This document shows positions 42,449 through 58,234 of a stretch of DNA of 64,000 nucleotides, in pieces (the stretch's first letter is position 1; each line of letters opens with the position of its first letter). The notes under the pieces are model-generated. The model worked only from the letters and a program-made list of their open reading frames with translations, was not told where the DNA came from and did no database searches. Origin of the DNA: Pseudomonadota bacterium (lineage in GTDB: Bacteria > Bdellovibrionota > UBA1018 > CAIMNF01). The position numbers and the translations under genes are program-made. The stretch lies in assembly GCA_027486675.1 (NCBI GenBank), contig JAIXOQ010000024.1, forward strand, positions 1,332-65,331. The letters are read 5' to 3'.

Positions 42449-42746
42449 GGCCCGCAGAAGGCATTGCGTCAATTGGAATGCCCGATTCCTCGCGTGCGAC
42501 AAATTCTGTGATCCCGCTATTTTTAGAGACCACTTTCTTCATGGCGTCAGAGAATGACCCCTGTGGAGAAGGAGTGTCCGTGTTTCGCACTAGTTGATTC
42601 ATGTCCTGAGAAGCGCGGTCGATTTGGCTTTGCACGGATTGTTCTGGTTGAATTGAACTAAATCTCGAGTGCATCTTTCCGAGTGTGAGGTAGGTTCCCC
42701 ACACTAAGGCTAATGTCAAAAATGACACGCTCACGAAAGATCGCAT
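42432..42746 (-). CDS. Membrane-anchored hypothetical protein
   Basis: The start at MRSFVSVSFLTLALVW gives a signal-anchor. It shares the VSFLT and G-x-[FL]-SDA-x-[KR]-KV motifs with the 43632-44273 product. Confidence 0.4.
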   Translation of the reverse strand: MRSFVSVSFLTLALVWGTYLTLGKMHSRFSSIQPEQSVQSQIDRASQDMNQLVRNTDTPSPQGSFSDAMKKVVSKNSGITEFVAREESGIPIDAMPSAGPTKKE

Positions 42747-42822
42747 CCCTCCATTATCAGCTAAAACTGTCAAGAATGCGAGGGGCCCCATTTCGCCCTT
42801 CTGTTAAGATATTCTTATCAAG

Positions 42823-43665: not shown

Positions 43666-44273
43666 AGTTTTTCATGCCCCTCGGGGAGTCGATCCGCTAA
43701 CTCTCGGAGTGTCACATGTTCATCCCGGAATTTTGCCTTAGGTAATACCTCTAGGATCTGCGCGATGGTTTGAATGGCTACGGAAGGCTCAGAAATCATT
43801 GAATTGAAGTAATCGGCTTCAAGACGTGCGGCACCTGGAATTTGGTCTGGGTAGCGTTTCATGAGCAAGTAACGCCTAAGTGTCTGCCCCTCTACGGATG
43901 AAGGGAAAGCCCTCTCTATTTCTCTGTCGTCCTCAGTGCGTTGCATCCGATCGATTTCTCTCTCGACCAAGGCTGCTTCATAAGCGCCTGGGTCAAGGTC
44001 TGCATTGTTGCCAGCCCGGAGCTTCGTGGGTTCAGAGTTGTCTGAAGCATAGTTGAGCTGATCTTGACCTAGAACTTTGCGCACAGCGTCAGACAAGGGT
44101 CCGCGACCCAGCCTAAATTCGGGATCAGAGACCATTTGGGTGAGAGATTGTGGGCCCGACTGTGAAGAAGAGTGAACACTGTCTTGGTCAAATAGCGTAT
44201 ATGCGATTAAAACGACGATCACAGTCAGAAATGACACAGGTATCAGGGCTCTCACCTTCTTGATTATCTTCAA
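43632..44273 (-). CDS. Membrane-anchored hypothetical protein
   Basis: TTG start, signal-anchor IPVSFLTVIVVLIAY. N-terminal module paralogous to the 42432-42746 product. Confidence 0.45.
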   Translation of the reverse strand: MKIIKKVRALIPVSFLTVIVVLIAYTLFDQDSVHSSSQSGPQSLTQMVSDPEFRLGRGPLSDAVRKVLGQDQLNYASDNSEPTKLRAGNNADLDPGAYEAALVEREIDRMQRTEDDREIERAFPSSVEGQTLRRYLLMKRYPDQIPGAARLEADYFNSMISEPSVAIQTIAQILEVLPKAKFRDEHVTLRELADRLPEGHEKLQALLPDPDFR

Positions 44274-44291
44274 AGAGTGGGAAATCGAAAA

Positions 44292-45509
44292 ATGAATAAA
44301 AAAAGCAGGGGAATCCTTTTTCTAAGTTTTCTCTTTTTTGCGTTTCAGGCACCGAGTTCTCAGGCGGGACCTTCACGCGATAAGGCGAATACACTTTTTA
44401 ACCGGATCGCGGGTATTCCTCCAAGCGCAGCCCAGCTGGATCAAATGGAAGGCCTCATCAGTGAAGGTAAGTGGCGGGACGCAGCTTATGTCGCAATCGC
44501 GGCACCTAGCTTTTATAATCTCACTTTAAAGATCTTTGCGGCACCCAAGGCGAACGTCGCTAAAGCAATCGACATCACTTTAAATGACTACATAGCGCTT
44601 GTGATTGGGATGGTGCGGGACAACGTACCGTTTAATGAAGTGCTGACAACAGACAGATATTACATTGGCGCTCCTGGACTTACGGGAGTGACAGCATGGG
44701 CAAGGCGCGTCGATGACAATGGAAATTCCAGGTACGACCGGAATGATCACTACGTTTCTTTGGAGCGTAATCGCATCGACCTCAGTAATCCAGCCAACTT
44801 CATCAGCGTATCGCAATCAGCGCCCGAGTATATCGGAGTGCCTTCTGCTGGTGTGATCACAACGCGTGGTTTCGCTGAAGCCTATTATTCTGCAGGAACG
44901 AACCGTCGTCCCTTTGCAGTGGGGTTGATGGATGCATTTTTGTGCACACCTCCTGAAATGTACAAAGATACGATCGTGCCGGACACTTACGTCAGACGAG
45001 ACGTGGATCGTGCTCCGGGGGGTGAATCAGCCGAATACTTAAACAAATGTAAAGGCTGTCATGCACTTCAAGATCCAATGACTAAGGCGTTTGCGTACTT
45101 AGATTTTAACAATGACGCACTTTCCTTTTCGGCAGGACAGGTCAGGGATAAAATGAAACGTAACCAGAACGTTTTTCCTTCCGGTTCGGAAGTACTTGAT
45201 GACCAGTGGGTCAATCTTTTCACGACCGGCAAGAATGCGGCGATCGGGTGGAGAGTTCCTGAGGGATATTCCACTTTCTTAAACGGCACAGGACATAAAT
45301 CCCTCGGAGCGACGCTTGCTGCAACTAAGGCGTTTTCCAGGTGCACCGTGAAGAAGATCTTCCAACAGGTCTGTCTGCGTGCTCCTAGCAGTGAAGACCA
45401 AGCTTTTATTGATCAAGTGGTGGAAGCATTTGAGGCTCCACAAGGCAGTCCTGCAATCAAGTACAACTTAAAGCACGTTTATGCTGAGGTTTCAAAATGC
45501 GTACAGTAA
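44292..45509 (+). CDS. Secreted CxxCH protein, DUF1588/DUF1585-like arrangement
   Basis: Signal peptide MNKKSRGILFLSFLFFAFQAPSSQA. The segment SAGVITTRGF..FLCTPPE..CKGCHALQDP (CxxCH at 45048-45062) recalls planctomycete-type CxxCH-x3-DP proteins. Confidence 0.6.
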   Translation: MNKKSRGILFLSFLFFAFQAPSSQAGPSRDKANTLFNRIAGIPPSAAQLDQMEGLISEGKWRDAAYVAIAAPSFYNLTLKIFAAPKANVAKAIDITLNDYIALVIGMVRDNVPFNEVLTTDRYYIGAPGLTGVTAWARRVDDNGNSRYDRNDHYVSLERNRIDLSNPANFISVSQSAPEYIGVPSAGVITTRGFAEAYYSAGTNRRPFAVGLMDAFLCTPPEMYKDTIVPDTYVRRDVDRAPGGESAEYLNKCKGCHALQDPMTKAFAYLDFNNDALSFSAGQVRDKMKRNQNVFPSGSEVLDDQWVNLFTTGKNAAIGWRVPEGYSTFLNGTGHKSLGATLAATKAFSRCTVKKIFQQVCLRAPSSEDQAFIDQVVEAFEAPQGSPAIKYNLKHVYAEVSKCVQ

Positions 45510-46132
45510 TACGGATCAGTTTGCTTTCCATCCTTGTGGCCAATACTTACGGCTGTTCCGAAAGAAAGATCTTTCAGCAGAGCTCTTCGGGAAGTGAATC
45601 TTCCTCTTTAGAAGCGAATCTGGAAAGTTCTCAAGGCATGAAAACCTCAGAACAACTCCTGATCAGCTTCGCAGCCCTGACCGGTATACCCGCGTCAAAT
45701 AATGCGGTGAATACAACCTACGTCAGCGTGAAGTCGCAGCTGCCGTACGAAAATGCAATGAGTAGCTTTCAAGCTTCCAGCCAGATGGCCGTGTTCAAAT
45801 TGGCCTCTGAGTTTTGTTTGGAGCTAGCAAAGGATGCTATGAAGCGTGGCGCATTTGCCCCTGGACTGAACTTCGCTTTGGCTCCGGCCGCAGCCTACAC
45901 TCCGGCCGTGCGTTCAGCGATGATCAACGCATTCATGAGTAAATTTTGGGGAGAAGGACTCTCCAATAGTCCAGATCGTTCCGAGGCCTTAAGCACCTAC
46001 CAGGACCTACTCAGCTCACTCATGCCGGGTGCGCCAGAGTCAACGACTCCAGCGAGCGCGACTGGTACAGCTTCCATCTTTTCGGGTGTCTGTGCTGGCG
46101 TCTTGGCAAGTTCAACACCTTCGTTTCAATAA
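45497..46132 (+). CDS. Lipoprotein, unknown function
   Basis: Lipobox NTYGC. Helical Ala-rich body. 13-nt overlap with the upstream gene. Confidence 0.5.
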   Translation: MRTVIRISLLSILVANTYGCSERKIFQQSSSGSESSSLEANLESSQGMKTSEQLLISFAALTGIPASNNAVNTTYVSVKSQLPYENAMSSFQASSQMAVFKLASEFCLELAKDAMKRGAFAPGLNFALAPAAAYTPAVRSAMINAFMSKFWGEGLSNSPDRSEALSTYQDLLSSLMPGAPESTTPASATGTASIFSGVCAGVLASSTPSFQ

Positions 46133-46161
46133 CAAAAAAGAATTTTAAGAGGGATAAGAAG

Positions 46162-47658
46162 ATGAGCATCAAAATTAAAGTAAGTCAGACGAAAGACAAC
46201 GATCCAAACAAAGGGCACGGCGCACCTACAAACCGTAGGGAATTTATTTCCCGTACCGCAGGGTTTGGGATGCTGACCATGGTGGCACCAACGATCCTCA
46301 CTCAATTCGCCAAAGGTGCGATTGCGCAGGGAGTCACTTCTTGCCCTGCTCCAAACCGGCCCAATACTTTACCCCTCTACGTCGTTGACGTTGCCGGAGG
46401 CTATAGTGTTGCAACAAACTTCATTCCTAAAAATCAGGCGGGAGAATTATTAGCAAGCTACAGGATTCATGGTATTGCACCTGAAAATCATCCATCCCTA
46501 CCCGGAAAAGCTGCAGATGCCTCCATTGGTATTGATATGCACAAGTCGAGTGGCTTTCTTGCAGGATTAACCGAGGCTACTTCTGACTCTGTTCGGCAGA
46601 GGATCGATGGTGGTTTTTTCGCGATCAATAGCGCGGACGATACTTCGAGCAACCAATTTAGCGTGAACTACATCGCTGCTGCAGCTGGAGCCGTAGGAAC
46701 CCTGATTCCATCCATGGGATCATCAGGAACTATTTCTGGTGGACGCCAAGCGGCAAACCCAGCCTACTATCGCTCACAACATAGGCCGGTTGTTATCGGC
46801 AGTGTGAATGATGCCCTTGCACTTGCGAATTACGGAAAACTTGCAACGAACTTAGGGTTAAAGGGTGCTGAACGGGTATCGCGTGCGGTTGCAAGCATGT
46901 CCTCAAGCGCACTCAATCGTTTTAGCGATCAAGTCGTTTCGAAGCAGCTGAAGGATCTGGTTTCGTGTGCGTACAGCGATCAGGCAAAACTTCCTCTTGA
47001 AAATACGGCCGCAAATATTGACCCCCGTCTCAACACCTCAATTACTTCAGCTTTTCCAAATATTGCAGGTAGTCAAAACCAGGCTAAGTTTGCGACAGCA
47101 GTGAGTCTGGTATCGAGTGGTCTTGCGGGCCAAGCAGTGCTCACCATTGGTGGCGGCGATTATCATGGCGACACACGCACGGATCAAGACTTGAAGGATA
47201 AAGAAATTGGTGACCTCGTGGGTAGGATCTTTGCCGCTCATGCAAATCTTGGAATTCCTGCCGTAGTGATTGTGGTCACTGATGGTTCAACGTCTTCTGG
47301 TGGTGGAATTCAACCCGACGCAACAACCGGAAACTTCCAGCAAACTAGTGATAACGGGAACCAAGGTGCAGCTGTGATGCTTGCGTTTAATCCTTTAGCC
47401 ACCCGAGCTCAAAAAGCGATCACCCGTAAACGTCAGGCAGGGTGGTTTAGAAATAACTCCCTCACTAATACCAACACGGGTGTAGATACCCGCTCGAGTG
47501 CGATTGCAAACGACGTCCCTAGGGCAGCGGTCGCCTTTGTAGCAAACTATCTAGCTTTGATGGGACGCGAAGGGGAATTAGCCTCCATTTTGGGTGGATC
47601 AAGCCCACTGAGCAATTCTCAGTTAGATGAAATTTTGCTCTTTAACAAGATCACATAA
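46162..47658 (+). CDS. Twin-arginine-signal-like protein, distantly DUF1501-like
   Basis: NRREFISRTAGFGMLTMVAP (46231-46251) resembles a Tat signal. GGGDYH at 47149-47166 resembles the GGWDTH motif of DUF1501 (alkaline-phosphatase-superfamily) proteins. Confidence 0.55.
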   Translation: MSIKIKVSQTKDNDPNKGHGAPTNRREFISRTAGFGMLTMVAPTILTQFAKGAIAQGVTSCPAPNRPNTLPLYVVDVAGGYSVATNFIPKNQAGELLASYRIHGIAPENHPSLPGKAADASIGIDMHKSSGFLAGLTEATSDSVRQRIDGGFFAINSADDTSSNQFSVNYIAAAAGAVGTLIPSMGSSGTISGGRQAANPAYYRSQHRPVVIGSVNDALALANYGKLATNLGLKGAERVSRAVASMSSSALNRFSDQVVSKQLKDLVSCAYSDQAKLPLENTAANIDPRLNTSITSAFPNIAGSQNQAKFATAVSLVSSGLAGQAVLTIGGGDYHGDTRTDQDLKDKEIGDLVGRIFAAHANLGIPAVVIVVTDGSTSSGGGIQPDATTGNFQQTSDNGNQGAAVMLAFNPLATRAQKAITRKRQAGWFRNNSLTNTNTGVDTRSSAIANDVPRAAVAFVANYLALMGREGELASILGGSSPLSNSQLDEILLFNKIT

Positions 47659-47672
47659 GGAAAAGTGTAATC

Positions 47673-48815
47673 ATGATGCGAATCACGAAGGCCGCATTCA
47701 CTTTGGCTGTCTGGGGGATTCTGACTGGATGTCAGGATCCGACGTTGACCTTTCAGTCTGAGTCGGAGCAGTCTGCACTCAACTCCCAGGGCGGATCCGA
47801 CAACTCAAGTCTTGCCTTCCAGCAAACCGTCTACCCATTGCTTAGGCAAAACTGTGCCGGATGCCATGGGGCAAACCAATCCCCACTCTTTGCATCCGCT
47901 AATGTGAATACTGCCTATTCTGAGGTCATCTCGACAGGCAAAGTCAATTTCGATGCTCCGTCGACTTCGCGCCTCGTTCAACGCTTGTCGGGGGATCTCC
48001 ACAACTGTTGGGGAAATTGCGACACTAACGCAAGTTTGATGCTTACCAAGATTCAGGACTGGATCAGCCAGGGCGGTGGAGGTGGGGTTTCAAATCGGGT
48101 GTTTTCCGCTGAGGTCGTAGTGCCCGCAAACTTAAGCACGACTGCGCAAGACATGAGCTTCCCGATCGCAAGCGTCTTTAATCCGCAGATTGCGGGTGCT
48201 CGAGTTTTAGTATCGGTCGTAGATACTGCGGGCGGCGCCTATCGCTTAAGTAATCCTAGGTTGATTAAGGATGCTGCAGGCGGAGTTGTTCCAATTGCAC
48301 TTCAAAGCATTCGTGTACTCAATAACAGTCTGTTTGATCCGACGACAACGACGTGGGATCTCGTATCCAAGATCCTAAATATCACTACCACTGCTGCAAA
48401 CAATCAGGTGACAGCCAGTAGCTTGTTGATTTTAAAGAGTGCCGGTCCTGGAGTGGATCGTCTAAAGATGAGTTTCGCAATTCTTGACTATGCCAATAGT
48501 CCAGGTCTTGCCGCGAGCCGCTTCGCCGCAGTGAAGCAGCTGGTTCAGGGACGATGCACCTCGTGTCACAACTCTGGAAACGCACGTGGTGGCGTGGAAT
48601 TAGATGGTCTTCTGACTGAAGCTGACTTTCTAAATGCCACGATCAAAGGTCGCGACTGGGTAGTACCTGGACCCTGTGCGGCCGGCGGCTGTAATAATTC
48701 TTACTTCTGGGATGTGATAGCGGGTCCAGGGGGCACTATGCCTACTAACCCGCAAGGTGCAGAGCGTGCGGTTCTTGGCGCTCAGATCCGGACTTGGATT
48801 GAAGGAATCCAGTAG
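47673..48815 (+). CDS. Lipoprotein with two planctomycete-type cytochrome-c-like (PSCyt-like) CxxCH motifs
   Basis: Lipobox ILTGC. LLRQNCAGCHG (47853-47867) and GRCTSCHNSGNARGGVELD (48555-48569) match the C-x2-C-H...GG-[LV]-x-L pattern. Confidence 0.6.
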   Translation: MMRITKAAFTLAVWGILTGCQDPTLTFQSESEQSALNSQGGSDNSSLAFQQTVYPLLRQNCAGCHGANQSPLFASANVNTAYSEVISTGKVNFDAPSTSRLVQRLSGDLHNCWGNCDTNASLMLTKIQDWISQGGGGGVSNRVFSAEVVVPANLSTTAQDMSFPIASVFNPQIAGARVLVSVVDTAGGAYRLSNPRLIKDAAGGVVPIALQSIRVLNNSLFDPTTTTWDLVSKILNITTTAANNQVTASSLLILKSAGPGVDRLKMSFAILDYANSPGLAASRFAAVKQLVQGRCTSCHNSGNARGGVELDGLLTEADFLNATIKGRDWVVPGPCAAGGCNNSYFWDVIAGPGGTMPTNPQGAERAVLGAQIRTWIEGIQ

Positions 48816-48828
48816 TTAGAATAAAGAC

Positions 48829-49371
48829 ATGGGTCTTCATTTCCTATCTTTCCTTGTGATGATCTTCGGTACTGACATACATGCGGCCGAAAAAAAGGGC
48901 GTTGAGTTTACTGTTTCTCTAAGCCCAGCTGGGTCATTCACGGCCCGATCAGACGCGCTCAGTGGTCAAGCCTTGGTCCGAAAGTCTGGACTCATCGTTG
49001 TTAAAAACGCAGAAATTCCAGTGAAAAGCCTTAAAACGGGTATCACCCTTCGGGATGATCACATGAATGACAAATACTTTGAGGCTGCAAAGTTTCCAAA
49101 AGTTGCGCTGATTCTTGGTTTAGGACAAAAGGGAAAATTTAAAGGGAAGCTGAACTGCCATGGAAAAGTAGGAGTCGTTGAGGGCACCTACGGATTTAAA
49201 GGGCCACTCCTCATTGCAAAGTTCAAGACAACCCTCAGTGCGTACGGGATCCAAGAAGTGAGCTGGAAAGGGATCGGCGTCGACGATGAAATCGAAGTTG
49301 AAGTCGCGTTGCCGTGGGTCAGGAAAGAGGCCGCACCGAATGAAAAGGATGTAGACCCTGAGTTGGTCTAA
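48829..49371 (+). CDS. YceI-like periplasmic protein
   Basis: Signal peptide. LKTGITLRDDHMNDKYFEAAKFPKVAL matches the YceI t-g-x3-RD-x-H-x5-F-x4-[KF]P motif. Confidence 0.6.
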   Translation: MGLHFLSFLVMIFGTDIHAAEKKGVEFTVSLSPAGSFTARSDALSGQALVRKSGLIVVKNAEIPVKSLKTGITLRDDHMNDKYFEAAKFPKVALILGLGQKGKFKGKLNCHGKVGVVEGTYGFKGPLLIAKFKTTLSAYGIQEVSWKGIGVDDEIEVEVALPWVRKEAAPNEKDVDPELV

Positions 49372-49390
49372 GCGCGGTCACGGTGCGTTT

Positions 49391-49738
49391 TTGATTTGTC
49401 TACTCGGGACCGCGTCTGCGTGTGGCCCGCAGCTTGAAAACTTTGTTACTGGGGATGAGGCTCGTTACGGGGTCACCGCTGAGGGGACCGCAGAATTTCA
49501 GGCGGCCTTAACGGTGCTCAATAACAACTGTGTCGCCTGTCATTCTGATTATGGTTCACTTTCTGAGGCCGAATGGATCGCTTCTGGAAAGGTGGTAGCA
49601 GGTAACCCTTCAGCATCCACGCTTTATCAGAATATTCGGGGCTCCGGGGTTGGGGCGCAGAACATGCCGCCTTCATCCACGATTGGACCAAGTGAACTCA
49701 GTGCAATATCTACTTGGATTACGAACGCTTCCCCTTAG
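49391..49738 (+). CDS. Small lipoprotein with a single CxxCH motif
   Basis: TTG start, lipobox TASAC. LNNNCVACHS at 49529-49543, followed by a downstream ..NMPP.. segment (a possible Met ligand). Confidence 0.5.
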   Translation: MICLLGTASACGPQLENFVTGDEARYGVTAEGTAEFQAALTVLNNNCVACHSDYGSLSEAEWIASGKVVAGNPSASTLYQNIRGSGVGAQNMPPSSTIGPSELSAISTWITNASP

Positions 49739-50676
49739 AGCCTGTAACTAAGACTCAAGCTCCAGCTCAAGTTTTCAGTCGTGCTGATGAATCCCATCCT
49801 GGGCGAGATTCCAAAACGATCTTTCTCAAAATAAGCTTCGATCTCAGCCCCAAAACGAAACCCGGACGCGTCTTTAAACTCGAACCCAGTTGGATTCGGC
49901 CAATTGGGCATGACGTAGAGGAGTGGAACAGTGAGGCCGACGCCACTCTTTTGTGACGGAAATAGGTAGCGCAGTGTCGGGGTGGTTCGAAGTGCAATCG
50001 TTTGAAGGCCAGAGGAATCAGGAACAGAGGACCCACTCGGGTCGGTGCTACTTGCTGAAACCTGGTTCGACGCGATCAATAGGCACCCGCCTAGGTCTAC
50101 GACTAAGCCCTTCTTTGAGATCGGCATTGTGTAGCCGCCGCCCGGGCAAAATCCGTTTTGAGCGGCTCGAAGATTAAATTGATTCGTCGTATTCGTCGAT
50201 TTCAGCGTCACATTCTGCTGCCAAGAAACCCAAGCGAGGGAAACATAGTAGGCACTCTTGACCGGGGTACGTGCAGCCTGTGCCTTGTACTCACTTGCTG
50301 CACTCCCTGTAGAGGTCGTGTCTGCCGTAGCCAAAGCAGCTGCGGTTTGATCGGCTGAAGGGGGAGGACTGAAGCGTTCCTGCTTCTTGTCTGCACTGAC
50401 CAAACAGCGGGTTTCCACTGCGTAGTTACTGCCTGAAAATGAAAGATAAGCGAAGGTTTCTTTTCCGGGCCAGAGGCGCCCACGCACGCGGTCACCTGTG
50501 ATCCAAGGTGGATTCACTCGCTTCCATTTTTGACTGACAAACTGCTGTACGGGACAGTCTGTGCTCTTTACGGTGAAAAAAGTGCTATCTATTGCAACTC
50601 CGGATGCGAATGTAGCACTCGCTTTCAGAATGATGAGCGCACTAAAGCCAAACGTGAATCTGTGTAAAAAGCGCAT
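49735..50676 (-). CDS. Predicted outer-membrane beta-barrel protein with N-terminal globular domain
   Basis: The internal ATG at 50676 gives the signal peptide MRFLHRFTFGFSALIILKASATFASG. A Ser/Thr/Ala linker is followed by an alternating beta-strand C-terminal half. The ORF-track start at 50880 would overlap the upstream gene by 239 nt. Confidence 0.45.
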   Translation of the reverse strand: MRFLHRFTFGFSALIILKASATFASGVAIDSTFFTVKSTDCPVQQFVSQKWKRVNPPWITGDRVRGRLWPGKETFAYLSFSGSNYAVETRCLVSADKKQERFSPPPSADQTAAALATADTTSTGSAASEYKAQAARTPVKSAYYVSLAWVSWQQNVTLKSTNTTNQFNLRAAQNGFCPGGGYTMPISKKGLVVDLGGCLLIASNQVSASSTDPSGSSVPDSSGLQTIALRTTPTLRYLFPSQKSGVGLTVPLLYVMPNWPNPTGFEFKDASGFRFGAEIEAYFEKDRFGISPRMGFISTTENLSWSLSLSYRL

Positions 50677-51805
50677 AATTGTCCTGCTCCAGCGAGTTTC
50701 CGCCAATAGTTCTTGTGCCTTGGAGATCTGTTCGAAGTTCCAAGCGTTGCATAGGAAAGTACTGTATCGACGGCCCTGCACGGTAGGAGCGTGATGCGAC
50801 TTCTCCAACGGCCCGGGTGTAGTATTCCAGCGTGAAGAGGAAATTGAGTCCTCGAATGATTTGTGTGGTCGACTGCGCAAAGTAATAAAGTCCAGTCTGT
50901 GCGGTCTGGGTGATTGGGTCTTCGCGTACAGTTCCGATCTGAGTTAAGAATGAATCCCCATCTCCGAAACCAAGTCGGGCATGGATAGCATTCATCTGCC
51001 GTGTCCTGAATTTTCCAGTCGTATAAAGGACCGAAGCTCCTGCACGGAGGTCCTTTGCAACATCATATTCCCCCATGACTGAAACACCCTCTTGCCTGAG
51101 GGCCGAGTCTTGAAAGAAGTTCCCCGCCAAGAGATGCACTGAGGCATCAAATTTCTTTTCGGCCCAGTGCACTAAAACTCCGTGAGACTGATCGTTCTGA
51201 TTGAGGCCCGTTTTGGCCCTCATGAAGGAGTTGTGATCAGGAAGACGCAAGCCAAAAGCGACATCGGTCATGCCGCCGTAGATGAAGAATTTCTTCCCTA
51301 AACGCCGTGCGATATAGTGTTCTCTAGAAATCCACGTTGAGATTTCTGAGGCTCGTGACGAAGTCTGAAGGGCTGCAGGGACCGGAATGTAGCCAGCAGT
51401 CAGCGAAGCCCACATTTTGTCGTCCTCTGTCTTAAGGACAACATTCGCTTCCGCTTGCATATGGATGAATCGATCGATGGAGTTTGCCTGTCCAACACCC
51501 GTGCGGTAGTCCATCCCGCGGTAATTCAAACTCGGTCTGATCCAGTAGGGGAGTTCCGCCTTTCCTAAAAAACCAGAGGATGCAGATAGTTCTTCGTCTG
51601 TTGCGTTAGGTAGGAAGAATGGTTTTGCCGCATAGACGGTGGCCGAAACCGCTCGCCCGTAATCTGTGAGTGGACCATTGCCCCAAGAGTTGTAGTGGCA
51701 AGTTAAGCAGGAGGTATAACCGTGAGATATTGCGTTTGGATAGGCCATGGCATCTTGCACAAAGACAAAGTACGCCAAAACCATGAGGGGAAGCAGAATG
51801 CGCAT
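50642..51805 (-). CDS. Predicted outer-membrane beta-barrel protein carrying an N-terminal CxxCH motif
   Basis: The ATG at 51805 gives the signal peptide MRILLPLMVLAYFVFVQDAMA. The mature N-terminus is YPNAISHGYTSCLTCHYNSWGNGPLTDYGR (CLTCH at 51695-51709). The remainder is beta-strand-rich, with an aromatic-rich C-terminus. Confidence 0.55.
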   Translation of the reverse strand: MRILLPLMVLAYFVFVQDAMAYPNAISHGYTSCLTCHYNSWGNGPLTDYGRAVSATVYAAKPFFLPNATDEELSASSGFLGKAELPYWIRPSLNYRGMDYRTGVGQANSIDRFIHMQAEANVVLKTEDDKMWASLTAGYIPVPAALQTSSRASEISTWISREHYIARRLGKKFFIYGGMTDVAFGLRLPDHNSFMRAKTGLNQNDQSHGVLVHWAEKKFDASVHLLAGNFFQDSALRQEGVSVMGEYDVAKDLRAGASVLYTTGKFRTRQMNAIHARLGFGDGDSFLTQIGTVREDPITQTAQTGLYYFAQSTTQIIRGLNFLFTLEYYTRAVGEVASRSYRAGPSIQYFPMQRLELRTDLQGTRTIGGNSLEQDNYALFTQIHVWL

Positions 51806-51931
51806 GTCTGTACCACTTAGTATGCGTGGAGTGGATCGTATTGTGGAGTGACGCTCTTGTGACGGCGGGAAACTGACGGCATTCACAAAACAGAAGAATT
51901 CTCCGAAAGGACAAAAGAAGGAGAGTGTCTT

Positions 51932-52864
51932 TTGATTTCAAAACGAATTCTAATCCCCCTGATCTTGTGCTTAAGCCTCTCAGGTTGCTTAGAAGGGAAT
52001 ACCGAAAACTCTGTGACGACTCCGGGCGATGACCCATGGTATTCATTTGCCGGTGGAGTGAAGGCGGTAAAAATTATTTTTGGAACAGGGGCTTCAGCGA
52101 GTTTTGACGCAGTCAGTGGCATTCCTACTAATGATTTGAGTGCAGTGCCTCCGGGTTACCCAGGCTATGACGCTGTCACTCTCCCCCAGTACCGAGCCGG
52201 CTACTCTTCGACACGTTTTTTTTCTGCCGATTCCGTAAGTACTGAAATTACGAAACCGAACTGGATCAAGGATTTTCAAATTTCTTTGTCGCCTACGACA
52301 ACAACCCCGTGCACGCAGTTGACCTCAGGCTACTACGAAGTCACTGAGCCCAACTGTGCCACGACCGGATCCATGAGCGGCACGGGATCCAGTTCTGACG
52401 AAGCGTTTTTCCGGCTTATTTTAGATCGAAATAGCGCAAAGATTGGGCTCAGGGAAAATCTCAATATTCAGTTTGATTATTCCGTCGCTGGATTAAGGAA
52501 CTATGCCTATGTCAGTCCTGGGCAGGCGATTACGACGCCCGATGATGCGTTAGACCAGGTCTGGAAGTCATTTTGGTCGCCAGGGCTCGCATCTTCGACG
52601 GTTGCAAGTCCACTGGGATATTTTGTGCCACCGATTTTAAGCGCCTGCGCAACCGGTTCTGCGGATTGTTCCATCGCGCGTCGGGGGAAAAGTATTTTTG
52701 TGCCGCTTGCAGCCCTTCCTACAGCAAAGGTCCTTCAGTTCTCAAGAACCGGAGGGAGAAGTACGGCTGGCTTCATCAGTGAGTGCGACAGCTCAACGCC
52801 CGCAAAAACAGGGTCCGATTGTGTGGGGATTAAAATTTACTCCATCACCTTGATGAGGCTCTAA
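51932..52864 (+). CDS. Lipoprotein, unknown function (paralog of 52868-53929)
   Basis: TTG start after an AAGGAG RBS, lipobox LSLSGC. Shares the blocks KPNWIKDFQISL, LDRNSAKIGLRENL, VPLAALPTAK and a terminal I-x-L-x-R-L with the next gene. Confidence 0.55.
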   Translation: MISKRILIPLILCLSLSGCLEGNTENSVTTPGDDPWYSFAGGVKAVKIIFGTGASASFDAVSGIPTNDLSAVPPGYPGYDAVTLPQYRAGYSSTRFFSADSVSTEITKPNWIKDFQISLSPTTTTPCTQLTSGYYEVTEPNCATTGSMSGTGSSSDEAFFRLILDRNSAKIGLRENLNIQFDYSVAGLRNYAYVSPGQAITTPDDALDQVWKSFWSPGLASSTVASPLGYFVPPILSACATGSADCSIARRGKSIFVPLAALPTAKVLQFSRTGGRSTAGFISECDSSTPAKTGSDCVGIKIYSITLMRL

Positions 52865-52867
52865 GGA

Positions 52868-53929
52868 ATGCTCAAACACTTAAGCCCATTCTGGCTCACG
52901 GTATTGATGGGATGCTCTGGGGCAACGCTCGAGAGCCTGACTTCTGCTGATCTGGGACAGGAGTTTACCGATGATCAGGCCGTACGCTTGGTGCTCAATC
53001 AGGAATCATTTAACAGCATCAGGAATTTTCCAACGGGTCAGACCGAGACGCTCTCTTGTTTAGGCGACGCAAGACTTTTCTACTCCGCCTCAGGTCCTGC
53101 GTTTGATGGAGAATATCTGCCGCTTAAAACTTTTGTGGATTCCGGAAGTTTAAGCAGAACGGCTCGGCCCGTGTGGCTTAAGAATGTTTCTCTCGATATG
53201 ACCTTCACCCATTTTGACGATGCTGAGGACGGTCAATTAGAAAGCGATGCTTGTTCGGATCGAGCCTACGTCACGCGAAAGCCCAGTGCTTGCGCTGAAT
53301 TCGATAACCCAAGCGGGATCACGAACAACCTTCCGACACTTCTGCCTGTTTCCAGTCCTACGCCCGCTCCATCACCGACTCCGGCGGCTTATGCCGCGTT
53401 TTCGCCGTCTGCGACCGGGTTCTATAGGACCAAGGATGGATATTGCGAAGGACAAGGACCGATTGAAAGCACAGGGATCCCGACAACAAAGACCTATGTA
53501 GGTGGGATCGATATTGATTTAGATCGCTCCCGCATTGGATCAAATGAGAATTTCTACTTTGCTTTGACCTACCATGCGATGGGGCCTGAGTATGGTGCTG
53601 CGGGGGCTGTTACTCCGTGGCCGGATACAGATTTATCGGTGGATGATGAGGCCATGATCAGAATTCGGCTGCTTTCTACAGGCCTGTCCGATTCCCTTTT
53701 GACCCGAGTTCTACAGCCCAGGTCCTTATTTAATTTCAATACTTCAAACACGACCGTGGTTTTTGAGGATCTCCACACCTTTCAGGATGAATTTAGAGGA
53801 GTGCGCACCGAAGGGTATTTGGTACCCCTTTCAGCATTTCCCACCGCTGACCGCATTCGTGTCGAACGAATAAGAGGCACGAGCTATCTCTATCAGCTGG
53901 ATCTCTATCGTTTGGGCGCACGCGAGTAG
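52868..53929 (+). CDS. Lipoprotein, unknown function (paralog of 51932-52864)
   Basis: Lipobox VLMGC. Has a Pro/Ser/Thr/Ala linker. Shares sequence blocks with the upstream gene (RPVWLKNVSLDM, LDRSRIGSNENF, VPLSAFPTAD, LDLYRL). Confidence 0.55.
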   Translation: MLKHLSPFWLTVLMGCSGATLESLTSADLGQEFTDDQAVRLVLNQESFNSIRNFPTGQTETLSCLGDARLFYSASGPAFDGEYLPLKTFVDSGSLSRTARPVWLKNVSLDMTFTHFDDAEDGQLESDACSDRAYVTRKPSACAEFDNPSGITNNLPTLLPVSSPTPAPSPTPAAYAAFSPSATGFYRTKDGYCEGQGPIESTGIPTTKTYVGGIDIDLDRSRIGSNENFYFALTYHAMGPEYGAAGAVTPWPDTDLSVDDEAMIRIRLLSTGLSDSLLTRVLQPRSLFNFNTSNTTVVFEDLHTFQDEFRGVRTEGYLVPLSAFPTADRIRVERIRGTSYLYQLDLYRLGARE

Positions 53930-53996
53930 AGCCGACCAAGCGTCAAGTCTTTGACGTCCTTGAGATCATCTTCAGTCTCCTTCCAAAACAGCCGAA

Positions 53997-55781
53997 ATGA
54001 AGCATGAGGAGATTCATCTTCTGAGGCGCATTTTGGCTACTATTCGAAAACTGAATTTGACTGCGACGAAAGTGTCCTTCCACTTGGGTCTGTTGATTCT
54101 TGTTTTTGCTATTGGCTGCAATAACTTTAAGGACTCACTCTCGAAACTTTCTGTTCCAAGATCGGATCTTACGAATGCGAGTTCAGATACATCTCAGTTT
54201 GTATTGGTTCAGGTGATTCCATCCCCGAGCGGTGTGAGCAGCTTAGATTTAATCGGACAAAATCAACAGTTTGAGACCTACTGCGCGTCCTCTTCTTGTT
54301 CCTGCAAGTTTCAATACACACAAACCAACGTTGGTCAGGTTGTCGTAGAAAGTCCGATCACCTACCAAGAGGCGGATCTGATCCGTTGCAGCAATCCTGT
54401 GCCTGCGGGCCTGGCTTCATTTCAAGTTCGGATCAGGAACTCTGACGACAGCGCAAAGTCCAACTGGATCACAGTCAGCATGAATAGCGGCACCTTTGGT
54501 GGGACGCAGCAGTTTTTAGACCTCACCTCAGTCGAAAGCTTTTCGCAGATCGAACGTTATCAGTGCCGTATCCGGCATGTCATCGGCCGATTTTTCAACT
54601 CAACACCCAATTTAGCTGCCTCAAGCGACGTGTACGATCCGATTCAATCTGAAGACCCGAATCTGATCTACCCGTTCAACTTTTTTACCGACAATACAGC
54701 TGATTCCATAATGCGCATTCAAAAGGGTGCGGACCCCAAGTGGGATTGTTCGATCACTGGAAATCTAAACGGCAATGCCTATCCCGTTTGGGCAAATCCT
54801 ATGGTTTTCTCAAACGCCACATGCACTGGATATAATTCGACCTGCACCAGCGAAGGTTGGCTGATGTATCCCACAGCCCAGCTCAGCTCCGGAACTTTGC
54901 AAAGTAGTGCAACTCTGACCACAGCTACAACGCGGGCTTCTTTTCAACTCGCTAAATCTTCCTATAGTGTTTTTGATCGTCCAGTTTATGGGATGAAGTA
55001 TCCGGTCACAGAGCTGGGTACTGGGGATCCCGCCACATCTCAATCGCCCACTCTTCGTTTAGGTTATGCCGCAGGGACCGTAGCCAGCGGAAATAGTTCT
55101 AGTTGCCCGACCAATATCACCCTGCCCGCAAATACCAGATGGGCGAAGTTATGGATGTATCGCGCAAGTTTTGCTCCTCCGCAATATGTAAAAAGTGTGC
55201 CGAGCGGGCAGAGTCAGGCGATCTGTTTTACGGGTGGAGCGAGCTACTATCCGGGGTGTGTGGTCGATGACGATAGATTAGACTTATTAACGGCTTTTGG
55301 GTCTACGCTTTCTCGTCGCGTGGTACTTGGCTCGGGCGGGGTTACCGCAAATGCGTGCTATAGCACTGGGATTGTAGCGCCAGACGTTTGGACTCGTAGC
55401 AGTGAGAACTTCGGTAACGCTGGCGCAAGTCTTCCCTGGAATATCGGACCCGGGGCAACAGTGTCTCCCGCAGACTCCTCCGTTGAAGTCAGTGCCGTGA
55501 ATGGAACTACGGATAACCCACAGGGGACCGACTACACCGACTATCTTTTTGTCGTGACACCCGAAAGCGTGAATGACAACGACATGCGAAACGGAAACAT
55601 TCCTGAGTACCGTCCGCAGACGTTCCGGAAACGGAGTGACTGTTCAGGCAATGATCCAAGTGATGCAAGTTGCACCGCTTTCTTTCAAAACTCAATCCAA
55701 TGGAACATTGATACCAGCGGGATCGGGGATACGGTGCCCAATCAATTTCCAGTGTGCGTGATTCAACGGGTGAATCCATGA
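53997..55781 (+). CDS. Large Cys-rich lipoprotein (paralog of 55778-58234)
   Basis: Lipobox FAIGC. The mature N-terminus CNNFKDSLSKLSVPRSD and the ETYCASSSCSCKFQY block parallel the next gene. Confidence 0.55.
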   Translation: MKHEEIHLLRRILATIRKLNLTATKVSFHLGLLILVFAIGCNNFKDSLSKLSVPRSDLTNASSDTSQFVLVQVIPSPSGVSSLDLIGQNQQFETYCASSSCSCKFQYTQTNVGQVVVESPITYQEADLIRCSNPVPAGLASFQVRIRNSDDSAKSNWITVSMNSGTFGGTQQFLDLTSVESFSQIERYQCRIRHVIGRFFNSTPNLAASSDVYDPIQSEDPNLIYPFNFFTDNTADSIMRIQKGADPKWDCSITGNLNGNAYPVWANPMVFSNATCTGYNSTCTSEGWLMYPTAQLSSGTLQSSATLTTATTRASFQLAKSSYSVFDRPVYGMKYPVTELGTGDPATSQSPTLRLGYAAGTVASGNSSSCPTNITLPANTRWAKLWMYRASFAPPQYVKSVPSGQSQAICFTGGASYYPGCVVDDDRLDLLTAFGSTLSRRVVLGSGGVTANACYSTGIVAPDVWTRSSENFGNAGASLPWNIGPGATVSPADSSVEVSAVNGTTDNPQGTDYTDYLFVVTPESVNDNDMRNGNIPEYRPQTFRKRSDCSGNDPSDASCTAFFQNSIQWNIDTSGIGDTVPNQFPVCVIQRVNP

Positions 55782-58234
55782 AGAAGATGCAAACTTTCAC
55801 ACTGTTGCTTCTGTTCGCTCTCAACTCCTGCTCCAACTTTAAGTCCGGCGTGGAGTCTTTAAGTGTACCTTCAGACGGTTCCTTAGATGGATCGCTATCC
55901 ACTTCAAACACTACGCACCAAATGGTGCAGGTCACTGTGGGAACAAGCACCACCGGAACTGCAGGGCTCAACTTAAGTTTAGCGGTTGCTGCAGGTGCCC
56001 CGACGCTTCAGAATTATTGTGCGATTGGCGGAACGAAGCCCTGTGCCTGTGAATTAAAATGGGTTCAGACCACGACTGTCGGAAGCACCACCACAACAGT
56101 CACAAGAACCAAACGCTTAAGCGCAACCACTGTTCAGACTGCAATTGTGGATTGTGCGATGGAGACCTCATTTTGGGATGAGATCGCAACTGGCACGATC
56201 ATCACGACAAAAATTGTTCCACTTTCTGGAAATGAAACCGGCTTCAATGTTCGCGCAATTGGCTATAAAAAAGGATCGAGTGTGTCCGCAACTGGGGATT
56301 TTTTAGATAGTTCCCTCACTCCGTTCAGAAACATCGTGCGTTACGCCTGTTACAGCAAAAGAAAAGTCTGGGATAAGCTCAGGAATGACACTGTTTCTAC
56401 AATCAATGGTACTGATTCTACGAATTCTCCTTTTTCGACCAGTTTTTGTTTAGATGGAGTGAGTGGCATTGGCGGTCAGTGCCCAGGTGGAAGTACGATC
56501 TATTCCGCACAAAGTTATTATAGAAATCTATACATTCAGTCCGACAGGGTAGGGCAGATCAATTCTAAGAACAGTGCTTTTGAGTGTCCGATGGTGGAAG
56601 AATCCCTGAAGTATTCTTCACCGGCCTCTGCGGTACCCACCGCGGAACGTGGTAAGCCCTATCCGCTCGATTCCCAGTTTTCATTGGCGCAACTCAAAGG
56701 GGGCGACTGGACTGTACCCGTTTCCTCTTCCTCCGTTTTATACAAAGCAAGTTCAAGTAATTCTGACCCAGATTCATCGGACGCCCCTTGTGCCGATGAT
56801 CCGAGTGTTGAAGCCGACAATGCGATTGCATCCTCTGTTCCGATCGCACGCAAATGTCTAGGATATGCCAAGAAGCCGCTGCCATCTGGAGCGTGTGGCT
56901 CTTTTACAGATAGCAGTGGTGTCATCAGACCCATGACCCGGCTCAGACGCTTTCGGACTCTCTACCCTCAGTTCTTTAAGCCGAATGGCAATGTGGAATC
57001 TGGAAACGCATTTGCTAAGCGCTGGATGGATGAAGTGTTGATTGCCGATCGTTTAGAAGTGAACACTCAAGGGCAGCTCACTGGAAATGCAATTTTTGGC
57101 CCAAAACCTTGCCCATTCGCGTGGTTTGATCACTCGGGCACGACCACAGGGGCTGCATCTGATCTTGGCACGGATTCATTTCTGACCGACTATCCGATTC
57201 GGTCTGCAGGCGGACCCCGTTACGGCATTCCTTCCTACCGAGCCACTTCCGCTTATCAGCGCGACAGCTTTAAAGTGAATCCGGATGGATATCACTTTCC
57301 AAATTATGATCTCTTCAACCTAGCGACCACTGCAGGGACGCCTGGCCGCCCTCATTCTTGTTCCGCGACCTTAAGTGTGGTCGAACGTGTCGATGGTGCA
57401 CCTGTGAGTGTTCGTCTCGTCACTTCCCTCTACAGCAGGGGTGATGTTTGGGATTTCAACGGCTCGACTACTTCGATTCCACTTTCGGATGTGCAAATTC
57501 GCCCGATTGAACCTTTCATGCCTCAGTACTTTGAAGATACGACCTTTCAGGCCTGTGTTCCCGCTTCGAGCGAGTACTTAGATCCGCCCCTTTATCTCTA
57601 TCGCAACGGGGCAACCCAGTACGCTTGGTGTTCAAAACCTTATCCAACCGCCAATCCTTATTGGCGTTCTTTGAATGCAAAAAAGAGAGTCTTAGGTACC
57701 CAAGCCAACACTCTATCTGCAGACGCACTGGTCGGGTGGAGCAGTGGAGCAGCCTCTGTCGATTATTTCACATCGACCAACAATGATGTTGCAGGAAACT
57801 TACTTTTTGGTCTGAACACTTGCGCAAAGACCACAGGCATTTGTAGTTTGCTGCCGGTTGCAGGAGACCAAACGATTTGCGCTACGTACATCGGCGACGG
57901 TACGCCAGGACCCCGATGTGATCGCACGGTGCGACTGGATGGTCAGACGGATTACCGCACGTTTCCGCTTCAGGCAAAAGATACTGAAATCAAGACGGCG
58001 CTCGACACGGATATGGATCTTGGGAAAAAAACTTACGGATGCACGTATTCAGTTCATCCCAACCGAAATTATCTTGGAACACGTTCGCCGACGACAGGCT
58101 GCTGTGGAGTAAGAAATGGATCGCCCGTCGTCTCAGGATTAGCAGCCGATGGAGATGGTGGCCACTTAGAGCCGATGAACCCGGGCAATCTTTCCTATCC
58201 GAACCGCCGATACTGCGGTGATCCGATTCAATAG
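55778..58234 (+). CDS. Large Cys-rich, Thr/Ser-rich lipoprotein (paralog of 53997-55781)
   Basis: The ATG at 55778 (ATGA overlap with the upstream stop) gives MKKMQTFTLLLLFALNSC. The mature N-terminus is CSNFKSGVESLSVPSD, with the block QNYCAIGGTKPCACELKW. Confidence 0.6.
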   Translation: MKKMQTFTLLLLFALNSCSNFKSGVESLSVPSDGSLDGSLSTSNTTHQMVQVTVGTSTTGTAGLNLSLAVAAGAPTLQNYCAIGGTKPCACELKWVQTTTVGSTTTTVTRTKRLSATTVQTAIVDCAMETSFWDEIATGTIITTKIVPLSGNETGFNVRAIGYKKGSSVSATGDFLDSSLTPFRNIVRYACYSKRKVWDKLRNDTVSTINGTDSTNSPFSTSFCLDGVSGIGGQCPGGSTIYSAQSYYRNLYIQSDRVGQINSKNSAFECPMVEESLKYSSPASAVPTAERGKPYPLDSQFSLAQLKGGDWTVPVSSSSVLYKASSSNSDPDSSDAPCADDPSVEADNAIASSVPIARKCLGYAKKPLPSGACGSFTDSSGVIRPMTRLRRFRTLYPQFFKPNGNVESGNAFAKRWMDEVLIADRLEVNTQGQLTGNAIFGPKPCPFAWFDHSGTTTGAASDLGTDSFLTDYPIRSAGGPRYGIPSYRATSAYQRDSFKVNPDGYHFPNYDLFNLATTAGTPGRPHSCSATLSVVERVDGAPVSVRLVTSLYSRGDVWDFNGSTTSIPLSDVQIRPIEPFMPQYFEDTTFQACVPASSEYLDPPLYLYRNGATQYAWCSKPYPTANPYWRSLNAKKRVLGTQANTLSADALVGWSSGAASVDYFTSTNNDVAGNLLFGLNTCAKTTGICSLLPVAGDQTICATYIGDGTPGPRCDRTVRLDGQTDYRTFPLQAKDTEIKTALDTDMDLGKKTYGCTYSVHPNRNYLGTRSPTTGCCGVRNGSPVVSGLAADGDGGHLEPMNPGNLSYPNRRYCGDPIQ

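Follow-up and report, generated by a model that had tools for sequence, protein, structure and literature searches.

What process is served by a run of genes for exported proteins, several with c-type heme motifs, in a genome of the phylum Bdellovibrionota? The question is raised by a stretch of 64,000 nucleotides of contig JAIXOQ010000024.1 (the whole stretch is hereafter called the window), in which twelve contiguous genes, P1 to P12, occupy positions 44292-58234 in three strand blocks of the open reading frame (ORF) list. A preliminary description of this DNA treated all twelve as one uncharacterized envelope system. Comparative analysis identifies a smaller conserved unit, the eight genes P1-P8 (44292-51805), which occurs across Bdellovibrionota. 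At its core stands P8, a predicted fusion of an outer-membrane porin with a heme domain, and the most likely reading, with a probability of about 0.5, is that P1-P8 transfer electrons across the envelope and represent a new variant among cytochrome-porin systems. The eight genes and their predicted products (lengths in amino acids, aa; Tat, twin-arginine export) are as follows.

Strand block 1 (P1-P6): 44292-49738, plus strand
P1: 44292-45509, plus strand, Sec-exported monoheme protein of 405 aa, related to PSCyt3/PSD2 (DUF1588/DUF1585)
P2: 45497-46132, plus strand, helical lipoprotein of 211 aa that has a conserved pair of Cys residues and is the partner domain of P4
P3: 46162-47658, plus strand, Tat-exported protein of 498 aa, candidate metallo-enzyme with a divergent alkaline-phosphatase-superfamily core
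P4: 47673-48815, plus strand, lipoprotein of 380 aa with two c-type heme motifs, one N-terminal and one C-terminal
P5: 48829-49371, plus strand, Sec-exported YceI-family lipocalin (putative binding of isoprenoid quinone or lipid)
P6: 49391-49738, plus strand, lipoprotein of 115 aa, predicted monoheme class I cytochrome c
Strand block 2 (P7, P8): 49735-51805, minus strand
P7: 49735-50676, minus strand, about 313 aa, putative outer-membrane partner of P8, whose N-terminal domain is variable and whose C-terminal part probably forms a small beta-barrel
P8: 50642-51805, minus strand, 387 aa, predicted fused monoheme cytochrome-porin of Cyc2-like architecture

Conservation of the P1-P8 gene order

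When one genome per species was scanned, 192 relatives of P8 were detected. The synteny counts given here cover the 80 best loci, which belong to Bdellovibrio, Halobacteriovorax, Bacteriovorax, Pseudobdellovibrionaceae, and Oligoflexia, and whose ORFs were searched iteratively with a profile of each window protein (jackhmmer, supplemented by tblastn for P9-P12). P8 is matched in all 80 loci, P7 in 77/80, a P4/P6-type cytochrome c in 74/80 (a small P6-type cytochrome c is found near P8 in 74/80), and P5 in 52/80; P1, P2, and P3 are each present in 29/80 loci and always together. In 39 of the 80 loci, the sequence flanking P8 is 9 kb or longer in both directions (full flanks); P1-P3 are encoded in 23 of these, and P8 occurs without them in the remaining 16.

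In the commonest arrangement, P1, P2, P3, P4, P8, and P7 lie on one strand in this order and are followed by P6 and P5 on the opposite strand. Median gaps along P1-P2-P3-P4 are 1-14 bp, P4 being located directly 3' of P3 in 29 loci (median gap 9 bp), and the median distance from P4 to P8 is 374 bp. P7 directly follows P8 in 77/80 loci and overlaps or abuts it, with a median gap of -37 bp between the longest ORFs. P5 adjoins P8 in 52/80 loci, in 50 of which a P6-type cytochrome gene comes immediately after P5 and abuts it. The P1-P8 order recurs in Bdellovibrio, Halobacteriovorax, Bacteriovoracaceae, and Oligoflexia at 36-52% protein identity. The gene-order conservation on which the preliminary description was to be judged is found for P1-P8 across the phylum, and not for P9-P12.

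Some genomes, among them those of Halobacteriovorax sp. SP2999 (loci L029 and L055) and of an Oligoflexia metagenome-assembled genome (L016 and L078), have two P8-P7-P6-P5 sets each, just one of which is joined to P1-P4, which suggests independent duplication of this four-gene core. In 19/80 loci the space between P4 and P8 contains a gene for a protein of about 280 aa with the motifs of LspA (lipoprotein signal peptidase II) and a C-terminal two-helix extension (L033, 9064-9900; L021, 9127-9954; L019, 8924-9790; and 16 more loci). A Peptidase_A8 gene also lies 3' of a P4-like gene in an unrelated locus (L208, 6171-7022). The LspA-like protein may be a dedicated signal peptidase for the lipoproteins of the module; its gene is absent from the window block.

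P8, a porin with a predicted heme domain

The P8 family comprises 460 homologs, and all those with a source name originate from Bdellovibrionota. In the window protein, the signal peptide MRILLPLMVLAYFVFVQDAMA can be read from the sequence, and the heme motif CLTCH occupies residues 33-37 of 387. An alignment of 42 family members revealed C33, C36, H37, and M116 to be invariant, and the consensus of the mature N-terminus is AYPxFIGYGYxSCxTCHYNPxGNGPLTDYGR. Exactly one CxxCH motif is present in 84 of 85 homologs, AYPxF being positioned 12 residues before its first Cys.

In the AlphaFold model of P8 (mean predicted local distance difference test, pLDDT, 88.8; predicted template modeling score, pTM, 0.83), a helical N-terminal segment of about 85 residues is followed by 16 beta strands. 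A Foldseek search of the PDB gave 255 matches at E <= 0.001; the top 50 are all outer-membrane porins or channels, and the matches are 16-strand general porins that include OprP (2o4v) and OprO (4rjw). P8 is accordingly modeled as an outer-membrane 16-strand porin with a predicted covalent-heme (CxxCH) domain at its mature N-terminus, and P8 and P7 form a predicted co-transcribed unit. Fused cytochrome-porins are a known kind of protein, but P8 represents a distinct family with a new partner set; the literature searched yielded no published description of the P8 family and none that links Bdellovibrionota with Cyc2-type proteins.

Comparison of P8 with Cyc2 and other porin-cytochromes

In Acidithiobacillus, Zetaproteobacteria, and Gallionellaceae, Fe(II) is oxidized at the outer membrane by Cyc2. 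This protein consists of a signal peptide, one CXXCH motif, and a 16-strand porin with structural matches to OprO/OprP; its heme site is preceded by AXPXFAR[Q/K][T/Y], a motif reported as unique to Cyc2, and followed by PXL (Keffer et al. 2021, PMC8406198). For comparison, metagenome contigs were scanned for the Cyc2 motif. The full motif, IPAFARKYGLxCSACH..P.LN.FG, occurs in single-heme proteins of 400-520 aa from at least 120 soil and sediment contigs (L087-L206), and 73 complete single-heme proteins of 390-530 aa, among the matches listed, formed the comparison set.

Like Cyc2, P8 has a signal peptide, one CxxCH that lies no more than about 15 residues from the mature N-terminus, and a modeled 16-strand porin close to OprP/OprO. 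The A-x-P-x-F-(7)-C spacing is identical to that of the Cyc2-motif proteins, the heme motif is followed by a P-L-[TN]-x-[FY]-G element, and a c-type cytochrome gene is located nearby. On the other hand, FAR[QK][TY] is replaced by IGYG in the P8 family (consensus AYPxFIGYG; AYPNAISHG in the window protein), and four extra residues separate CxxCH from the P-L element: the nearly invariant P-L-T of P8 lies 7 residues after the His, as opposed to 3-4 for the PXL of Cyc2. A similarly extended spacer is found in a subset of the Cyc2-motif proteins (e.g. L103, L133). The genomic context also differs, since P8 has the obligatory downstream partner P7, together with YceI and the P1-P4 operon. Among the matches listed, no relatives of P5, P7, or P1-P3 are encoded beside Cyc2-motif proteins, and at least 36 neighboring ORFs match the P6 cytochrome c profile. 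Finally, the hosts of P8 are predatory Bdellovibrionota, which are not known to oxidize iron.

Profile-profile comparison (hhalign) was performed with the 73 metagenomic Cyc2-motif proteins and not with reference Cyc2 sequences. The probability of homology to the P8 family was 90.8% in local mode over 50 N-terminal columns, 95.2% in global mode, 92.9% for the subset with the longer spacer, 92% for the heme region alone, and 0.8% for the barrel alone. P8 is Cyc2-like in architecture, and its sequence does not establish it as a clade of Cyc2.

The MtrAB, MtoAB, and PioAB systems likewise combine an outer-membrane barrel with c-type heme in order to move electrons across the outer membrane (as described in PMC8406198), but theirs is a 26-strand barrel sheathing a separate decaheme protein. 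A complex of the MtrAB type was rejected for this locus: P8 combines a single heme motif with 16 modeled strands in one polypeptide. No multiheme protein with more than two CxxCH motifs is encoded in the block.

The immediate partners of P8: P5, P6, and P7

The N-terminal part of the P7 family is variable and may be TPR-like, proline-rich, or, as in the window, a Cys-pair domain, and the C-terminal 170 or so residues are conserved and end in Y-x-F (F in 45/82). Because such a C-terminus is typical of small outer-membrane barrels, we infer that this region of P7 forms one. The P7 family has no match in Pfam, barrel families included, or in the PDB, and its profile matches neither the SH3 plus OMP-barrel nor the OMP-barrel proteins encoded beside the gammaproteobacterial P1-P3 trio. 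The two barrels named in the preliminary description therefore differ in standing, P8 having a 16-strand AlphaFold model and P7 the Y-x-F terminus of its family.

In 73 members of the P6 family, CxxCH and Met92-Pro93 are conserved in 100% and the lipobox Cys in 97% of sequences. The nearest solved structure is cytochrome c-552 (1a56; E 0.006, residues 44-111), and matches to Pfam models stay below the cutoff. With its CxxCH and distal Met, P6 is a predicted class I c-type cytochrome lipoprotein, and the 115-aa CxxCH lipoprotein noted before is thereby confirmed. The YceI-like assignment of P5 is likewise confirmed: P5 matches the Pfam YceI model (PF04264) with E 1.7e-10 and 41.9 bits against a cutoff of 23.7, over profile positions 10-147 of 150, and its nearest solved structure is the Helicobacter pylori YceI homolog 3hpe (E 2e-4).

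YceI domains bind ubiquinone-8 and other polyisoprenoids, and in Cellvibrio Cbp2D a YceI domain is fused with c-type cytochromes and a DUF1587 (PSD) domain, the cytochrome domain being able to reduce lytic polysaccharide monooxygenases (PMC8981238). The module resembles Cbp2D/Cbp2E of Cellvibrio japonicus, extracellular electron-transfer proteins for which an extracytoplasmic redox role is described (PMC8981238), in having YceI (P5), small cytochromes c (P6, P4), and a PSD2/PSCyt3-like protein (P1); this likeness is drawn from the published description and not from sequence comparison. Cbp2D is a single secreted fused protein with the carbohydrate-binding module CBM2, whereas the P1-P8 components are separate polypeptides, no carbohydrate-binding module (CBM) is encoded in the window, and the module is linked to an outer-membrane cytochrome-porin. 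A second parallel is BcnA, a YceI lipocalin paired with the cytochrome b561 LcoA in a proposed quinone-based radical-quenching redox system (PMC9113575). Here too a YceI lipocalin gene adjoins a cytochrome gene with a proposed quinone-mediated envelope redox function, but the window cytochrome is a predicted c-type lipoprotein instead of a membrane b561, and the pair is linked to a cytochrome-porin. Some components can thus be placed beside characterized ones, the CLTCH barrel through its Cyc2 architecture and the YceI, cytochrome c, and PSD combination through the Cbp2D precedent, and to this extent the preliminary view of an uncharacterized system has to be qualified.

The P1-P4 operon

The P1 family has more than 2,200 homologs and extends to Gammaproteobacteria. 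The heme motif CxGCHxxxDP and four further Cys residues are invariant in 35 homologs, of which 20 match PSD2 (best E 1.5e-10), five PSCyt3, and five PSCyt2 at E <= 0.01. The window protein itself scores 16.2 bits against PSD2, under the Pfam cutoff of 25.8; support for the earlier characterization of P1 as DUF1588-like comes from its homologs rather than from P1 itself. In the P2 family the lipobox Cys is conserved in 97% of proteins and C107 and C199 are invariant; P2 has no match in Pfam, NCBIfam, or the PDB. Among 28 homologs of P4, the lipobox Cys and the first CxxCH are each retained in 96% and the second CxxCH in just 11/28, and matches to Pfam cytochrome c and PSCyt1 are at or below the cutoff. 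Of the two PSCyt-like motifs ascribed to P4 previously, the first is therefore a family feature, and the second is not; the PSCyt1 match is sub-threshold.

A word-indexed search for P3 homologs gave 6 sequences, and a full HMMER search 1,293 clusters at 50% identity. The invariant residues of the family are RR, D76, D160, N164, D333-x-H335, and D374. In the AlphaFold model of P3 (pLDDT 79.6; pTM 0.81), D76, D333-x-H335, and D374 follow the predicted strands 72-77, 324-329, and 367-373, respectively. The top 50 Foldseek matches in the PDB all belong to the alkaline-phosphatase superfamily and are weak (best E 0.011, template modeling score about 0.2); they include iPGM, alkaline phosphatase, choline sulfatase, MCR-1, LtaS, and ENPP1. 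An alkaline-phosphatase-superfamily fold for P3, as suggested by this model, is probable but unproven. The preliminary description had P3 as a Tat-signal protein of the DUF1501 type. The Tat motif stands, being present in 32/35 homologs, and the family assignment does not: P3 has no match to DUF1501 (PF07394) or DUF1552 (PF07586) at E <= 0.1 and none in NCBIfam, and none of 40 family members matches DUF1501, DUF1552, or any relevant Pfam model at E <= 0.05.

Domain fusions tie P1-P4 together as one operon unit. In two loci (L004, 10361-12907; L207, 3173-5683), P4-like cytochrome domains and a P2-like C-terminal domain belong to one Laminin_G_3 protein of 840 aa, and in a third (L208, 998-2584) the P1 homolog has an additional cytochrome c domain at its N-terminus. 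Outside Bdellovibrionota the P1-P3 trio occurs without P8 (five such loci were fetched), and in three of these five (L004, L209, L210) it lies beside envelope redox genes and candidate outer-membrane barrels. There, a redox cluster is transcribed divergently from the P1/P4~P2/P3 trio (L004, 2705-8629; L210, 3545-9469; L209, 4076-9568). It comprises redoxin, DUF4266, and DUF3570 genes with either DsbD and ApbE or a set of an 885-aa HZS_alpha-like, SH3 plus OMP_b-brl, and OMP_b-brl proteins.

PSCyt2 and PSCyt3 genes have been reported beside two families of unknown genes (PMC5615132). The planctomycete pairs of PSCyt/PSD with DUF1501/DUF1552 proteins are similar to P1-P3 in that a PSCyt/PSD-type heme protein (P1) is encoded next to a Tat-exported protein of about 450-500 aa (P3), and LamG-type domains occur in the middle protein of the trio in other lineages. 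They differ in that the DUF1501 and DUF1552 models find neither P3 nor 39 of its relatives, in the size of P1, roughly half that of the usual PSCyt3/PSD protein, and in the presence of an additional lipoprotein, P2. The DUF1501 papers found give no published function for that family.

The twelve-gene block and its surroundings

Beyond P8, on the opposite strand, the block continues with four further genes.

Strand block 3 (P9-P12): 51932-58234, plus strand
P9: 51932-52864, plus strand, Cys-rich lipoprotein of 310 aa
P10: 52868-53929, plus strand, Cys-rich lipoprotein of 353 aa
P11: 53997-55781, plus strand, Cys-rich lipoprotein of 594 aa
P12: 55778-58234, plus strand, Cys-rich lipoprotein of 818 aa

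The coordinates of the twelve contiguous genes match the ORF list, and an export signal could be read by eye from each translation. The count made previously was reproduced on re-reading: seven lipoboxes (P2 TYGC, P4 LTGC, P6 ASAC, P9 LSGC, P10 LMGC, P11 AIGC, and P12 LNSC), four Sec-type signal peptides (P1, P5, P7, P8), and one twin-arginine-like motif, NRREFIS, in P3. These readings are supported by conservation of the lipobox Cys in 96-97% of the P2, P4, and P6 families and of RRx[FLIV] in the 32 P3 homologs mentioned above. The five reported CxxCH motifs are likewise confirmed (P1 CKGCH253; P4 CAGCH61 and CTSCH295; P6 CVACH47; P8 CLTCH34), and their density is 5 in the 4,563 aa of the block against none in 15,841 aa encoded by the other window ORFs of at least 200 aa. 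Those of P1, P6, and P8 and the first of P4 are conserved among homologs, the second motif of P4 being the exception. The preliminary description envisaged a periplasm-to-surface complex, possibly redox- or heme-dependent; the block does hold a conserved, predicted heme-dependent periplasm-to-outer-membrane system with planctomycete-type components.

Pfam and NCBIfam scans of P1-P12 gave YceI (P5) as the sole family above the cutoff; P4 and P6 had sub-threshold matches to cytochrome c and PSCyt1, P1 to PSD2 (DUF1585), and eight proteins had no match. In agreement with the earlier statement, no ATPase, transporter, or regulator was detected among the twelve proteins by these scans. Sequence searches of the PDB, in which P1, P3, P7, and P8 were represented by profiles, and searches with P4, P5, P6, and P12 gave nothing significant except the weak YceI-homolog and cytochrome c-552 matches. 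Base composition shows no anomaly across the region, predicted promoters and terminators in 43500-58600 are no more numerous than in shuffled sequence, and two upstream regions had no interpretable features. Short gene overlaps suggest translational coupling within units: P1/P2 overlap by 13 bp (45497-45509), P8/P7 by about 35 bp (50642-50676), provided that the ATG at 50676 is the start codon of P7, and P11/P12 by the 4-bp ATGA (55778-55781). The stop codons of the convergent P6 and P7 overlap by 4 bp (49735-49738).

P9-P12 have counterparts of 73-82% identity in one close relative (L006, 87% identical) and in no other fetched relative; tblastn and jackhmmer detected them in 0/80 of the related Bdellovibrionota loci, and in a relative of 52% identity (L005) unrelated small genes take their position. 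In view of their conservation in L006, P9-P12 are real genes for lineage-specific lipoproteins, adjacent to and divergent from P8 and outside the conserved module. The proposal of a single twelve-gene system is therefore abandoned, and the inclusion of large surface-type lipoproteins in a complex has no comparative support, because P9-P12 are absent from the related loci. Of the two paralogous pairs described among them, P11/P12 are related over the N-terminal 200 aa or so (27.6% identity, E 2e-7), and P9/P10 only marginally (23% identity along 159 aa; E 5e-4 with a database of four sequences). P9-P12 have no match in Pfam, NCBIfam, or the PDB.

The surrounding genes are ordinary, as stated before, and encode an M17 peptidase, an S-adenosylmethionine (SAM) methyltransferase, YifB/ComM, ComEC, and a CDF transporter. 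In the fetched loci the methyltransferase, the small transmembrane proteins, comM/YifB, and the M17 peptidase do not travel with the module. A CARME-type or generic SAM methyltransferase gene lies near the P1-P3 operon in three unrelated loci (L002, 797-2149; L004, 14746-16119; and the window, 42823-43665). It was dropped as a module member, and its proximity is taken as coincidence, because the window methyltransferase has relatives in just 3 fetched loci. Two small proteins with an N-terminal transmembrane helix (43632-44273 and 42432-42791, both on the minus strand) are apparent paralogs, as judged by cross-matches in L006; their genes are situated between the methyltransferase and P1 and are conserved just in the closest relatives (L005/L007, L006).

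A possible trans-envelope electron-transfer role and its alternatives

The P1-P8 module may well move electrons across the envelope, since its core is an outer-membrane pore fused to a heme domain. In such a pathway, electrons would pass at the porin between the P8 heme and a redox substrate that is either soluble or located at a surface. The analogy with Cyc2 makes Fe(II) oxidation the first reaction to consider. P6 and P4 would ferry electrons through the periplasm, and P5 would couple the chain to isoprenoid quinone, so that electrons could pass by way of P6 (and P4) to or from the P5-held quinone or the general respiratory chain. P1-P3, as a unit of heme protein and metalloenzyme in the periplasm, would draw on this chain or supply it. 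As the module encodes no inner-membrane partner, the chain would have to plug into the general respiratory chain.

Several observations weigh against this reading. Heme attachment, outer-membrane location, and redox activity are all predicted, and the signal peptides of P1-P12 are by-eye readings. The locus neighborhoods contain no recurrent inner-membrane redox partner, oxidase, or quinol dehydrogenase. The link between P8 and Cyc2 rests on architecture and a short heme motif, because the A-R-[QK]-[TY] of the Cyc2-defining motif is absent from P8 and the barrel has no sequence homology to the Cyc2-motif proteins in the barrel-only hhalign comparison; the short heme motif is, moreover, partly common to other cytochromes. 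No Foldseek match of P3 reaches E <= 0.001, which leaves the alkaline-phosphatase fold assignment weak. Known Bdellovibrionota are organotrophic predators, and lithotrophic use of Fe(II) is for this reason unexpected. The two halves of the module can also work apart, given that P1-P3 occur without P8 in other phyla and P8 without P1-P3 in 16/39 loci.

The same components could instead serve substrate import and processing: the P8 porin would admit a prey- or environment-derived compound, P1-P4 would transform it in the periplasm, and the hemes would function in catalysis or sensing and not in electron flow across the membrane. Such a role is consistent with the resemblance of the P8 barrel to substrate-selective porins (OprP, chitoporin) and with the fold matches of P3, which are alkaline-phosphatase-superfamily hydrolases and transferases, the conserved Asp and His residues being candidate metal ligands. 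P1 is PSD2/PSCyt3-like, P1-P4 are analogous to the planctomycete pairs discussed above, the P4/P2 protein of other lineages has a carbohydrate-binding-type Laminin_G_3 domain, and in Verrucomicrobia PSCyt genes neighbor sulfatases and CBM domains (PMC5615132). However, the tightest partners of P8 are cytochrome c and YceI rather than P1-P4, an invariant heme motif is hard to explain in a passive pore, and the neighborhood encodes neither a periplasmic binding protein nor an importer of the inner membrane. We consider this explanation rather unlikely.

Control of oxidative damage in the envelope is a second alternative, in which P5-P6 with P8 and P7 would quench lipid-derived or quinone radicals of the outer membrane and the periplasm, as proposed for BcnA/LcoA, with no external substrate involved. 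The pairing of a YceI lipocalin with a cytochrome is conserved, and this role has been proposed for it (PMC9113575). P5 and P6 are adjacent in 50 loci, and in other phyla the P1-P3 trio adjoins redoxin, DsbD, and ApbE genes. Yet the partner in the module is a predicted c-type lipoprotein cytochrome and not an inner-membrane b561, YceI is missing from 28/80 loci, and intramembrane quenching needs no open 16-strand porin with heme at its mouth, which makes this role improbable.

The genes might also form no joint system, P1-P4, P5-P6, P8-P7, and P9-P12 being independent operons for exported proteins in chance juxtaposition. P9-P12 are demonstrably unrelated to the rest of the block, the P4-P8 gap (median 374 bp) exceeds the gaps within units, and each half of the module is found alone, P1-P3 in Gammaproteobacteria-type loci and P8 in the 16 fully flanked loci that lack P1-P3. 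Chance juxtaposition is nevertheless very doubtful in view of the P1-P2-P3-P4-P8-P7/P6-P5 order, which recurs at 36-52% identity while flanking genes are not conserved, and of the LspA-like gene placed inside the array, between P4 and P8, in 19 loci. Least probable of all is iron or heme acquisition, in which the cytochrome-porin and periplasmic heme proteins would capture or redox-convert iron or heme for uptake instead of serving energy gain or the disposal of electrons: Cyc2-type proteins do act on Fe(II) (PMC8406198), and the components all lie in the envelope and several are predicted to bind heme, but CxxCH implies covalently attached heme, a cofactor and not cargo, and no TonB-dependent receptor, ABC importer, FeoB, or EfeU-type permease is encoded in or around the module.

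Implications for Bdellovibrionota and for cytochrome-porins

Within the electron-transfer reading, a more specific picture is offered tentatively, as possible though on the doubtful side: P1-P8 could be an undescribed phylum-wide trans-outer-membrane conduit, in which a Cyc2-like P8 and its obligate partner, a small barrel, are connected by way of a lipoprotein cytochrome c to a YceI lipocalin that carries quinone, to a PSCyt/PSD-type heme protein, and to a Tat-exported metalloenzyme. If this were true, it would provide the first functional context for the large PSCyt/PSD families and would point to extracellular redox activity in obligate predators, for instance the oxidation of Fe(II) or a transfer of electrons to or from prey or surfaces.

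Fused cytochrome-porins serve as marker genes for microbial iron oxidation. The distinct P8 family has the same architecture in at least 192 species-level genomes, all examined loci of which belong to Bdellovibrionota, and for this reason the fused architecture appears to be broader than lithotrophy; surveys of iron oxidation based on such markers may miss or misread P8-type genes. The linkage of P8 to YceI, small cytochromes c, and a PSCyt/PSD-like protein with its Tat-exported partner provides a compact genetic context, and the module is experimentally tractable, since it is present in cultured Bdellovibrio strains such as HCB185ZH, HCB274, HCB288, and HCB290. For the biology of these predators, it raises the question of whether Bdellovibrionota exchange electrons with external substrates.

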